Below are positions 210 through 3,818 of a stretch of DNA of 64,000 bases, one piece after another. The translations under genes were made by a program, and so were the position numbers. The DNA is from a virus (taxonomy: Duplodnaviria > Caudoviricetes): positions 1 through 64,000 of IMG/VR virus record IMGVR_UViG_3300024331_000231, one strand, 5' to 3'. Below the pieces are notes generated by a model. The model was given only the letters and a program-made list of their open reading frames with translations, had not been told where the DNA came from and did no database searches. Each line of letters starts with the position of its first letter. The stretch's first letter is position 1.

Positions 210-809
210 ATGGCCAAAACATCAGTGTCCGTAGAAGTCGTTGAATTCTCCATCCAACAAGTCATCATCCCCATTAAAGGCATCTCCCCTCTCATTGTTC
301 ACGCCTGGTCGGAAAAATCCAAGAAAATGATCGCCGACAAACAGGCCGGGAAAGCCAAGAACAAAAAGCACGAAATCCGTAACCCTAAGGAAGAATATGA
401 AGCGGCCAAACATATTGCCGTCGCCGGCTGGGAAGGATACCCCGCTGCTGGCTTCAAAGCTGCGATGATCCGGGGAGCCAAAATGATCGGGATGGTCATG
501 AAAGACACCCAGACGGCCTTTTTTATCCACGCCGATTGCGAACAGACGCAACTAGTCAAGATCATCGGCAAAAGCAAAATGCGCGATGACATGGTCCGGG
601 TCGGGATCGGTGCTTCCGATATCCGGTATCGGCCGGAGTATACCGAGTGGTCTGCCAAATTGACCGTCGAATTCAACGCCGGCATCCTTTCGATCGATCA
701 GATCCACCAACTGGTCAAGGCGGCCGGCTACGGCTGCGGAATCGGGGAAATGCGCCCAGAAAAAGGAAAATTCAATTATGGACGTTTTAAATTAGCCAAT
801 GAAAAATAA
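210..809 (+). CDS. RAMP/Cas7-like RNA-binding protein (Vipr-like)
   Basis: RAMP-style motifs in the expected order: N-terminal strand IKGISPLIVH, GYPAAGFKAAMIRG (cf. Cas7/Csm3 IPGSSLKGxxR), DIRYRPEY..W, and C-terminal glycine-rich loop AGYGCGIGEMRPEKG..YGRF. Adjacent to the pentamer array. Confidence 0.75.
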   Translation: MAKTSVSVEVVEFSIQQVIIPIKGISPLIVHAWSEKSKKMIADKQAGKAKNKKHEIRNPKEEYEAAKHIAVAGWEGYPAAGFKAAMIRGAKMIGMVMKDTQTAFFIHADCEQTQLVKIIGKSKMRDDMVRVGIGASDIRYRPEYTEWSAKLTVEFNAGILSIDQIHQLVKAAGYGCGIGEMRPEKGKFNYGRFKLANEK

Positions 810-1377
810 CCTTCAGCTAGCAAAAAATGCCAAATACGAATGGCGCCCGGAATTTAAAACCAGTCTGGCCAAATCCGATATCAAAGTTGCCATTGCCGAA
901 TTAAGAGCACTCGAAGACACGTATGGCGAAATTACCCCATCGCTTTTGGTTGAGCATTCAAAACGGAAAAAATCAATTTTTCACAATTTTTTTGAATGGG
1001 ACAACGAGCGAGCCGCCGACTCTTGGCGGTTCATGCAAGCTCGATATTTATTGGGATCCATCCAGGTCAAAGTGGTTAAAAAGGGCAATCCCGTTCGAAT
1101 GCCGGCCTATCAAATCACCAAGAGAAGCGCCCCGAAAGCCGGCAATACTACCTACACCCGATTCGATACGCTCACGCAAGACAATAAGATGTTCATTCTT
1201 CAGCAGTGTTTAGCAGACCTGGCAAGAGTCAAAAACAAACTTATGGCCAACGATTTTGAGGACGCTATACCATATATTGATAAAGCCATCATAGCACTTC
1301 AAAAAGAATCGGAGATAATTCCCATAGAAAGCTCACTATCACCAAATAAGGTTAAAATAATGTCTACAGGCAAGTAG
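799..1377 (+). CDS. Conserved phage protein partnering the RAMP-like gene (FEWD-x-AA-x-QAR family)
   Basis: Motif ITPSLLVEHS..SIFHNFFEWDNERAADSWRFMQARYLLGSI. Overlaps the upstream gene by 11 nt; its stop codon abuts the array. Confidence 0.75.
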   Translation: MKNNLQLAKNAKYEWRPEFKTSLAKSDIKVAIAELRALEDTYGEITPSLLVEHSKRKKSIFHNFFEWDNERAADSWRFMQARYLLGSIQVKVVKKGNPVRMPAYQITKRSAPKAGNTTYTRFDTLTQDNKMFILQQCLADLARVKNKLMANDFEDAIPYIDKAIIALQKESEIIPIESSLSPNKVKIMSTGK

Positions 1378-1381
1378 ATTT

Positions 1382-2276
1382 GGCAGTTATGATTTGGCAT
1401 GGTCCGGATTGGCCCTCAAAGGCTAGGAATGCTAAGGTTTGGTAAGGCAGAAAAGGTACGGAATGGCATGGACAGGAAACCAAAAGTAGTATGAGACTCG
1501 GTTTGGCAGATAGGGCCCGGAGTGAATAGGACAGGCCATCAAAGGAACGCTAAGGAATGGTTCGGTTAGGAGAGGCAGCTGCGGATGGGTATAGACCGGT
1601 TAGGCTGGGAGTGCCTAGCACTGGAGTGGTGCGGTGCGGTGGGATTTGGCAGCTATGGATTGGATCGGGGGCGCCGGGTTTGGTGCTCAAAGTCGCGCTG
1701 CGGAGAGGCAGCCATGGATTGGTGTGAGTAGGAACGGCTTGGTATGCAAGGACTCGTTTCGGATGGGCAGTAAAGGACCCTAAAGGAACGGAGTGTTCAG
1801 GCTCGTAAAGTTTGGGTAAGGCAGTTTTGGACTGCAAAGGATGGGCGAGATCGGGTTTGGAAGTCTCGGGTAAGGTACGGCAGTAAGGGCAAGGTTTGGC
1901 GGGGTATTGAAAGGTCGGTTTTGATAAGGTGAGGCAGTTGTGGTGGAAAGTGGGAAGGAATGGCAAGGTCAGCTATGGTACGGTTCTCTTTGGCAGCAGG
2001 GGCTGCGTGTGGCCGATTTGGACTGGCAAGCAATGGAAAGGCACATTTAGTTTCGCATGGGTGTTCTGAGGTATGGCAGTTCAGGTAAGCGTTGGACTGG
2101 AAAGGTATGGATAGGTTCTCCGAGGAGCGGCAGTTATGGAACGGTGAGGAATCACTTGACCAGGAATGCTTAGGTATGGTATGGCAATGCAGGGATCGCT
2201 GAGGAGCGGCAGTAATGGCAAGGAAGTCATTGGTGAGGCATGTTTGGGACCGATGTGGTAGGGTATGTTGCGGCAG
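1382..2276 (+). repeat. Pentamer-phased GGH-NN array with 15 GGCAG delimiters; putative guide-RNA (vrRNA-like) array
   Basis: GGCAG at 1382, 1446, 1505, 1574, 1648, 1707, 1766, 1820, 1879, 1933, 1992, 2075, 2129, 2208, 2272. Spacings are 64, 59, 69, 74, 59, 59, 54, 59, 54, 59, 83, 54, 79, 64: all 5n+4 except 83, which is 19+64 via GGCCG at 2011. By hand count 99 of 151 internal pentamers start with GG. Confidence 0.92.
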
Positions 2277-2336
2277 GAGAAGAATTCCCTATCTTCGCTC
2301 CGGCTTTTAATAGGATATTGAATTTAAACACATCCG

Positions 2337-2360
2337 GGCCCCTGTTCTCAGGGGCCTTTT
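2337..2360 (+). terminator. Rho-independent terminator closing the RAMP-partner-array transcript
   Basis: GGCCCCTG-ttct-CAGGGGCC followed by TTTT. Confidence 0.75.
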
Positions 2361-3497: not shown

Positions 3498-3818
3498 TTA
3501 CCCCCCCCCGATAATTTCATTCGTCGCGCCGACCGCAGCGTTAGTAGCCAATAGCCGCTTCAACAGAATCAGTTTGCTTTTCAAGACAATGAAGTCTTCA
3601 CTTTTGGCCTCCTGCGTTCGTTTTAAATCTTCCAACTTTTTCAATATTTTGTCTGACCGTTGCTGTGAGTGTATCGCTGTCGGGGCCAGCATTATTCCCA
3701 TCAATTCGGCATTCATTAACTCAGCAGTTTCTTTTCCCGGGATGGCGTCCAAACCCTTCACCAGCAGGTCAAAATCTTCGGCCGTAAGGCCTACGGAGAG
3801 TATGTCTGTAATATCCAT
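3498..3818 (-). CDS. Hypothetical protein
   Basis: 106-aa ORF in the leftward early operon. Confidence 0.6.
   Translation of the reverse strand: MDITDILSVGLTAEDFDLLVKGLDAIPGKETAELMNAELMGIMLAPTAIHSQQRSDKILKKLEDLKRTQEAKSEDFIVLKSKLILLKRLLATNAAVGATNEIIGGG

Follow-up and report, generated by a model that had tools for sequence, protein, structure and literature searches.

VIPR systems were reported in 2026 (bioRxiv 10.64898/2026.04.26.720920, 10.64898/2026.04.26.720927 and 10.64898/2026.10.15.759431), and are described there as loci consisting of Vipr, a vap gene and vrRNAs assembled from GGY/NN pentamers. The published code, as given there, is directed at double-stranded DNA, which the characterized systems bind on either strand; each NN dinucleotide pairs, one target base, usually the codon wobble position, is skipped, and the result is transcriptional silencing. 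In 10.64898/2026.04.26.720920, 667 systems and seven VIPR types were catalogued, staggered arrays and non-GGY scaffolds such as NNNGG being among them, and the legend of its figure S18 refers to individual processed vrRNAs overlapping by 1 nucleotide (nt). One-base skipping, wobble alignment and recombinase targeting were shown experimentally for SUSP1, the guides of which are aimed at the excision recombinase of its satellite (F5 family) according to 10.64898/2026.10.15.759431, and the SUSP1 residues gripping the G-G-Y bases were named in a cryo-electron microscopy preprint (bioRxiv 10.64898/2026.04.26.720927). In the present study, positions 210 to 2360 of a 64,000-nt viral sequence (Duplodnaviria; Caudoviricetes; positions 1 to 64,000 of IMG/VR record IMGVR_UViG_3300024331_000231; hereafter the window) were analyzed. 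The locus is interpreted as a VIPR system that is encoded by a phage, possesses a staggered array and works in the way proposed below, and a probability of about 0.88 is assigned to this interpretation. An earlier note on this DNA, made from the sequence alone, had compared the locus to VIPR, and its account of VIPR agrees with 10.64898/2026.04.26.720920 and 10.64898/2026.04.26.720927; the novelty it attributed to the locus was overstated, since abutting staggered arrays, non-GGY scaffolds and recombinase targets are already contained in the 2026 preprints.

Locus organization and homology of the Vipr protein

Like the published staggered VIPR systems, the phage-borne locus combines a vipr gene, one accessory gene and an array of pentamers in which a scaffold is associated with variable NN dinucleotides. 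The vipr gene (210–809, + strand; 199 amino acids, aa) encodes a minimal RAMP/Cas7-like subunit, represents the single RAMP gene of the operon and overlaps by 11 nt with a vap-like accessory gene (799–1377, + strand; 192 aa). The staggered vrRNA array (1382–2276, + strand) starts with a GGCAG motif 4 nt past the TAG stop codon of the accessory gene (1375–1377) and extends to the last GGCAG (2272–2276), yielding a length of 895 base pairs (bp), in agreement with the arrangement of both open reading frames (ORFs) and the array given in the earlier note. Moreover, the order vipr, vap-like gene and array is kept in 13 relatives residing on viral contigs or in metagenome-assembled genomes (MAGs).

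Class 1 CRISPR-Cas systems (type III with Csm3/Cas7 and type VII with Cas7) differ from this locus in possessing CRISPR repeats, spacers and cas1. Their backbone proceeds in steps of 6 nt with one flipped base, whereas the VIPR step comprises 5 nt with three flipped bases, and the VIPR code is gapped and targets DNA. Neither a repeat-spacer array nor an adaptation module nor a multi-subunit effector was found at the locus and, as had been claimed, CRISPR-type direct repeats are lacking in 1382–2276. The further claim that cas1, cas2, cas3 and cas6 are missing held for cas1, no gene for which was found in the whole 75.9-kb phage record, other cas families not having been searched one by one.

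For the protein deduced from ORF 210–809, no Pfam family was identified, and a match was obtained to phrog_4652, a family of unknown function. Homology to the published Vipr protein was recognized by several searches: comparison of the SUSP1 Vipr gene with this ORF resulted in a BLASTP E-value of 6e-10, the SUSP1 Vipr chain 36pp_D (type II VIPR, PDB 36pp) matched with an E-value of 6e-5 over residues 129–190, and hhalign, applied with a profile of 70 family members, returned a probability of 98.6% for SUSP1 Vipr. Only the C-terminal third of the protein aligns by sequence to its SUSP1 counterpart (30% identity). The predicted model adopts the Cas7/Csm3 RAMP fold, the protein thereby conforming to a minimal RAMP of the Vipr kind with RRM core, G-loop and thumb, and the RAMP fold proposed for this ORF in the earlier note is supported by the model together with the match to 36pp_D. 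Outside VIPR, the closest solved folds are those of RNA-targeting Csm3, Cmr and type VII Cas7. At E ≤ 1e-3, the Vipr family comprises 3192 representatives.

In a global alignment, residues H17, R138, C173, D177, W178 and R179 of SUSP1 correspond to H31, R141, C176, E180, M181 and R182, i.e., the H, R, C, D/E and R contacts are conserved. Among the 70 family members, H31 was found in 62, R141 in 69 and R182 in all 70. The G-loop of the protein reads GIGEMRP (residues 177–183), and its GEMRP part (window 750–758 for residues 180–182) is carried by 120 of 120 close relatives, whereas SUSP1 and most of the family feature G[DE]WRP. Hence, the tryptophan stacking on the second G (Trp178 in SUSP1) is a methionine (Met181) in this clade. 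Within the GEMRP clade, conservation of the second scaffold G falls short of that of the first, and position 3 also admits A; it is possible that the GEMRP change and the relaxed scaffold are linked, protein to RNA.

Array grammar and decoded guides

GG-to-GG pairs at lag 5 were counted 61 times in the array as compared to 20.0 ± 4.5 (maximum 33) in 500 shuffles; counts were high at lags 10 and 15, too, and those at lags 9 and 14 were raised. A single five-base phase across the whole array was rejected, because GG counts are distributed over all five global phases. The motif GGCAG occurs 15 times with spacings of 64, 59, 69, 74, 59, 59, 54, 59, 54, 59, 83, 54, 79 and 64, and 13 of these 14 values equal 5n−1. 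The exception (83) is divided by a degenerate delimiter, GGCCG (2011–2015, + strand), into a vestigial unit of 19 nt and a regular unit of 64 nt; when this delimiter is counted, 15 of 15 spacings are 4 mod 5, and the pentamers downstream of it fall in phase. Accordingly, phase is kept strictly inside a unit and every delimiter shifts it by −1, which corrects the assertion of strict phasing over 895 bp in the earlier note. The 14 units counted there were recovered as full units, to which the 19-nt vestige has to be added.

The unit formula reads [G-N-T-NN][GG-H-NN]n[GGCAG], with the terminal G common to the next unit, and the units of this array consist of 11–16 pentamers each and share one base with their neighbor. 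In a profile of 46 units aligned on GGCAG, originating from this phage and nine related loci, the delimiter is followed by four bases N-T-N-N and then by pentamers showing G at position 1 at a frequency of about 0.9, G at position 2 at 0.6–0.9, G at position 3 at ≤0.09 with T being preferred, and variable NN. In the simplest reading, the final G of GGCAG doubles as the first base of the G-N-T-NN pentamer of the next unit. According to the figure S18 legend, adjacent guides of the published staggered type overlap by 1 nt as well, the end of one marking the start of the next; for the present locus, this overlap was read from the sequence.

Within this array, 131 of 151 body pentamers begin with G and 99 with GG, and position 3 of the GG pentamers is occupied by T (39), A (39), C (19) or G (2), in line with the GGH scaffold noted earlier. 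Unlike the GGY motif of published VIPR systems, the scaffold is GG-H, A being present at position 3 in approximately 40% of the pentamers. Furthermore, unlike in the published staggered type, the first pentamer of each unit retains only its first G. The same pentamer grammar recurs in related loci and in actinophage loci; the NN strings are not common to relatives encoding a 75% identical Vipr. In SUSP1, every vrRNA has a gene of its own and ends in a structured tail forming a pseudoknot, whereas no tail or pseudoknot of this kind was found here, where units abut and only GGCAG and 4 nt lie between the repeat tracts. In addition, the array yielded no ribozyme and no Rfam family, the latter result speaking against a hammerhead-type array.

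Each unit was decoded as NN-x-NN-x according to the one-base-skip rule, and the reversed guide served as control in the family scans. Under this rule, it was shown computationally that units 1, 3 and 8 read catalytic-core motifs of recombinases. Pentamers 1–11 (1509–1563) of unit 3 (1509–1578, + strand) spell, in antisense, the motif D[IM]FVFCCYTGL of tyrosine integrases of the Bacteroidota type. An exact scan of IMG/VR with pentamers 2–11 (20 specified bases) returned four sites on three contigs, all of them antisense to D[IM]FVFCCYTG, with skipped bases that differ between contigs and fall on wobble positions. The corresponding genes encode the Pfam domains Arm-DNA-bind_5, Phage_int_SAM_5 and Phage_integrase. 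Four sites at 20 bases are unexpected, given that scans with 18 bases (see below) gave just 2 hits and three unrelated families. The 20-base core with ≤2 mismatches was also searched for in 151 genomes from the family to which a MAG (titled Segetibacter koreensis) bearing a close Vipr relative belongs; it occurred 51 times in 35 of them, as opposed to 5 times for the reversed control. Moreover, the 22-base pattern of pentamers 1–11 had at least 120 exact matches in metagenomes and, among the matches listed, 120 of 120 were located at DIFVFCCYTGL or DMFVFCCYTGL. Pentamers 12–14 matched at no site examined, and for this reason the full-length unit (28 bases, ≤3 mismatches) was found in 0 of 401 genomes. 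Since three of the 11 matching pentamers possess a degenerate scaffold, imperfect pentamers still carry code.

Unit 8 (1824–1883, + strand) spells FLKWDRFSRN, a motif of large serine recombinases, in its pentamers 1–10 (1824–1873) and in sense orientation. Within 121 genomes, eight hits were obtained versus one for the control, and three of them were perfect (20/20) with different skip bases. All of these sites fall on [F]xKWDxFSR[NK], read in sense, and the proteins concerned measure 522–543 aa and feature the Pfam domains Resolvase, Recombinase and Zn_ribbon_recom. Pentamers 2–10 (1391–1435) of unit 1 (1386–1450, + strand) spell, again in antisense, F[LM]YFGNGMN of a subfamily of tyrosine recombinases, matching at 18 of 18 bases in one genome (G015) and at 17 of 18 in two others (G034 and G032), in each case at the same motif of homologous integrases. 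This motif occupies the homologous box in another subfamily of integrases (Pfam Phage_int_SAM_5 and Phage_integrase). Eight hits were also counted for unit 1 in the 121 genomes, versus one for the control; three of these lie at the motif and five are chance sites, which renders this assignment less secure.

Thus, the code of units 1 and 3 corresponds to the box surrounding the first position of the active site in two tyrosine-integrase subfamilies typical of Bacteroidota, and that of unit 8 to the DRFSR catalytic motif of large serine recombinases. At the sites of units 3 and 8, the skip bases vary and the read bases are fixed. Skipped bases are located on codon third positions, and the targets are distributed over both strands, which fits recognition of DNA and argues against recognition of mRNA. 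The proposal in the earlier note that NN constitutes the exposed code was confirmed, in the gapped-pattern search with decoded guides suggested there, for these three units, which spell conserved recombinase motifs far above controls.

Two observations concern the relatedness of guides. Units 1 and 3 share TCAAAGG and GCTAAGG at degenerate pentamers, hinting that one was derived from the other by duplication and retargeting. Among the IMG/VR relatives, four loci (L008 at 5109, L009 at 4346, L010 at 2155 and L012 at 5229) contain variants of one long guide in which the first four dinucleotides are identical and much of the rest is shared, which suggests a conserved target under diversification.

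Further target searches showed no excess over controls. No guide fitted the 75.9-kb genome of the phage itself, or the VIPR loci in 15 relatives, better than shuffled guides did. Skip lengths of 0, 1, 2 and 3 were compared on this local sequence only, none exceeding chance, and self-regulation was therefore rejected, no self-target above shuffled guides having been found under any of the four; units 1, 3 and 8, in particular, possess no self-targets. Exact IMG/VR scans with 18 specified bases yielded 2 hits for unit 12 and 6 hits in three families for unit 9, without extension and at chance level, indicating that 18-base gapped patterns yield 2–3 unrelated hit families per IMG/VR scan. The chance hits of unit 9 include a 297-aa ORF (L027, 2368–3261, − strand) and a 724-aa ORF (L028, 6282–8456) on unrelated viral contigs. 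Exact IMG/VR hits of units 13 and 1 were likewise at chance level, the coherence of the peptides being forced by the pattern itself. With patterns including the terminal pentamers, 0 hits were obtained for units 8 and 4 in exact IMG/VR scans. Family scans of units 14, 4, 13, 6 and 10 showed no excess over the reversed control, and the guides of the relatives had no matches in the integrase loci.

Grammar and decoded sites also bear on other explanations of the array. It could be read as one or a few long RNAs in a continuous Vipr filament, in which GGCAG represents a phase-shifting spacer and the units are not separate guides. Neither tail nor ribozyme nor promoter lies between the units, as this explanation would have it, and staggered-array processing is not among the architectures confirmed by small-RNA sequencing in 10.64898/2026.04.26.720920. 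However, the −1 slip breaks the five-base register at every delimiter, so that a single filament could not keep phase; the matched code ends 2–3 pentamers before each GGCAG and resumes after it; and the figure S18 legend speaks of individual processed vrRNAs. A continuous filament is therefore considered improbable. Alternatively, recombinase mRNAs might be what filaments of Vipr and guide attach to, in the manner of type III Cas7/Csm3 filaments, which bind transcripts. The nearest solved folds outside VIPR are those of the RNA-targeting proteins named above, and units 1 and 3, being antisense to the coding strand, could pair with mRNA; unit 8, by contrast, agrees in sense with the coding strand of the serine recombinase it targets and cannot pair with that mRNA, and the characterized VIPR systems bind double-stranded DNA on either strand, which makes targeting of RNA very unlikely. 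Finally, a simple or structural G-rich repeat (e.g., quadruplex DNA) or a translated low-complexity region, with incidental homology of the protein, would be compatible with the G content of 39% and with mechanical ORFs of 42–138 aa crossing both strands of the array, but is already contradicted by a five-base period that slips by −1 in every unit and does not agree with any reading frame, by a scaffold that is conserved across relatives while NN varies, and by three units decoding to recombinase motifs only under the gapped rule, and is given practically no weight.

Accessory gene, flanking signals and source phage

ORF 799–1377 was taken as an accessory (vap-like) gene, a conserved partner in this Vipr clade. 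No Pfam family and no convincing fold match were found for its product, the model of which is of moderate quality (predicted local distance difference test, pLDDT, 72.7), and the clusters closest to it in the ESM Atlas consist of viral hypothetical proteins. A word search retrieved four close homologues, and syntenic homologues with 31–39% identity are located directly 3′ of vipr in 13 related loci. By hhalign, the protein is related to the products of Vipr-adjacent genes in Mycobacterium phage Donkeykong (E 3e-13) and Gordonia phage ODay (E 7e-15), whereas comparison with SUSP1 vap1 (E 67) revealed no sequence similarity. Since structured tails are lacking and ORF 799–1377 is unrelated to vap1, the locus was not filed as VIPR type II (the SUSP1/P. 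fulva clade).

Donkeykong (NC_051648) and ODay (MW534375) encode full-length homologues of the present Vipr (36–39% identity) adjoined by the same vap family, and their staggered units also end in GGCAG with an overlap of 1 nt. These actinophages differ from the locus described here in their GGC-NN scaffold and their Actinomycetota hosts, as well as in the position of the array, which is situated upstream of vipr in Donkeykong and between vipr and vap in ODay. In Donkeykong (L021), about six staggered GGC-NN units (2520–2865) lie just upstream of the Vipr homologue and are almost wholly covered by gp48 (locus 2501–2887), a coding sequence annotated as 'hypothetical protein' that probably represents a mis-called gene. 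In ODay (L020), three GGCAG-ending units (3635–3777) fill an unannotated gap between gene 19 (Vipr) and gene 20 (vap) in the tail-gene region.

Upstream of vipr, a non-coding leader (113–209, + strand) is the presumed promoter region. The promoter mentioned in the earlier note could not be verified: a sigma-70 scan returned one weak site (144–173) versus 4.0 in shuffles, its consensus not applying to Bacteroidota. Downstream of the array, the terminator reported earlier was recovered as a terminator-like hairpin with U run (2336–2363, + strand). Its hairpin (2336–2357), consisting of a 9-bp G+C-rich stem and a 4-nt loop, has a folding energy of −19.6 kcal/mol (z = −3.2), and none of 200 shuffles folds as well; it was not among the sites listed by a simple terminator scan.

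The window belongs to a virus record of 75,922 bp with a CheckV completeness of 100%, and the same phage is present in further soil metagenome assemblies. A gene of the tyrosine recombinase family PF00589 is absent from the complete record, where serine recombinases were not searched for, and the phage can carry anti-integrase guides without targeting itself. It is probably virulent and has a probable host among the Bacteroidota. Relatives of its Vipr were found on 15 IMG/VR contigs and, in the genome collection, on three Bacteroidota MAG contigs (76%, 76% and 48% identity). The integrase architecture read by unit 3 is typical of Bacteroidota elements. The Bacteroidota host named in the earlier note is supported indirectly in this way, namely by the binned MAG contigs bearing Vipr relatives and by the kind of integrase targeted.

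Proposed mode of action and its implications

By homology to SUSP1, the operon would be transcribed from upstream of 210 to the terminator near 2360, and the array RNA would be cut or read into units of 55–80 nt. Vipr protomers may then polymerize along each unit, one per five bases, gripping G-G-H via H31, R141, E180 and R182 and presenting the NN dinucleotides, while the partner protein may assist the Vipr complex. For units 1, 3 and 8, it was shown computationally that the NN string pairs with double-stranded DNA reading NN-x-NN-x, with x on codon third positions. On infection, the complexes would occupy recombinase genes of resident satellites, prophages and conjugative elements and block their transcription, in analogy to SUSP1, and the silenced elements would be unable to excise and to exploit or compete with the phage. 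In other words, the VIPR system described here probably immobilizes rival integrated elements.

Several points weigh against this interpretation. Twelve of the 15 units are without a target above controls, the evidence for unit 1 is weaker owing to the chance sites among its family hits (five of eight), and the other guides do not match integrase-bearing loci. Moreover, the guides do not converge on one element, as deduced from the 20-kb flanks of 11 integrase sites and from 120 metagenome loci. The last 2–3 pentamers of units 3 and 8 never match, so that the guide boundaries had to be inferred, and about one third of the pentamers is without a full GG. On the protein side, the tryptophan stacking on the second G in SUSP1 is, according to the alignment, replaced by methionine throughout the clade, and no sequence relationship connects the partner protein with SUSP1 vap1. 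Expression, processing and binding at this locus are suggested by analogy with SUSP1, the promoter of the vipr operon is presumed to lie upstream of 210, where the sigma-70 scan did not identify it, and the probable host was deduced solely from the binned MAG contigs and the kind of integrase targeted.

VIPR as a kind of system is already known, and the locus is a well-supported example of it, to which decoded guides against recombinases and an explicit grammar are useful additions. Natural VIPR targets are known for few clades. The locus provides a clean example of the staggered architecture, the grammar of which is made explicit by closure with GGCAG, the shared G and the 5n−1 rule. This grammar also occurs in mycobacteriophages and Gordonia phages that have been studied well, in which the array either lacks an annotation or has been taken for a gene. 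Furthermore, the one-base-skip rule holds in a distant clade whose GG-H scaffold is relaxed and in which Met takes the place of Trp at the contact to the second G, and, as in SUSP1, wobble positions are skipped and a recombinase of a rival integrated element is a natural target. The decoded guides define candidate sites of 30–33 bp.

Guides directed at tyrosine and serine recombinase motifs extend the single experimental case, namely SUSP1 against its satellite's recombinase, in the direction of a broader pattern in which phages immobilize integrated rivals by means of VIPR. SUSP1 guides address the excision recombinase of one satellite family, whereas the guides decoded here address motifs common to many unrelated integrases. 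With about even odds, the array represents a broad-spectrum anti-recombinase battery, the guides of which do not follow one rival element but are matched to the unchanging first two positions of codons in motifs of the catalytic core. The breadth ascribed to a single guide is derived from the occurrence of unit 3 sites with ≤2 mismatches in 35 of the 151 genomes of the presumed host family. If the battery is real, one guide would silence hundreds of otherwise unrelated integrases, and targeting would take place at the level of gene families, which is unattainable with contiguous CRISPR guides. A virulent phage would then freeze the whole resident mobilome at infection.

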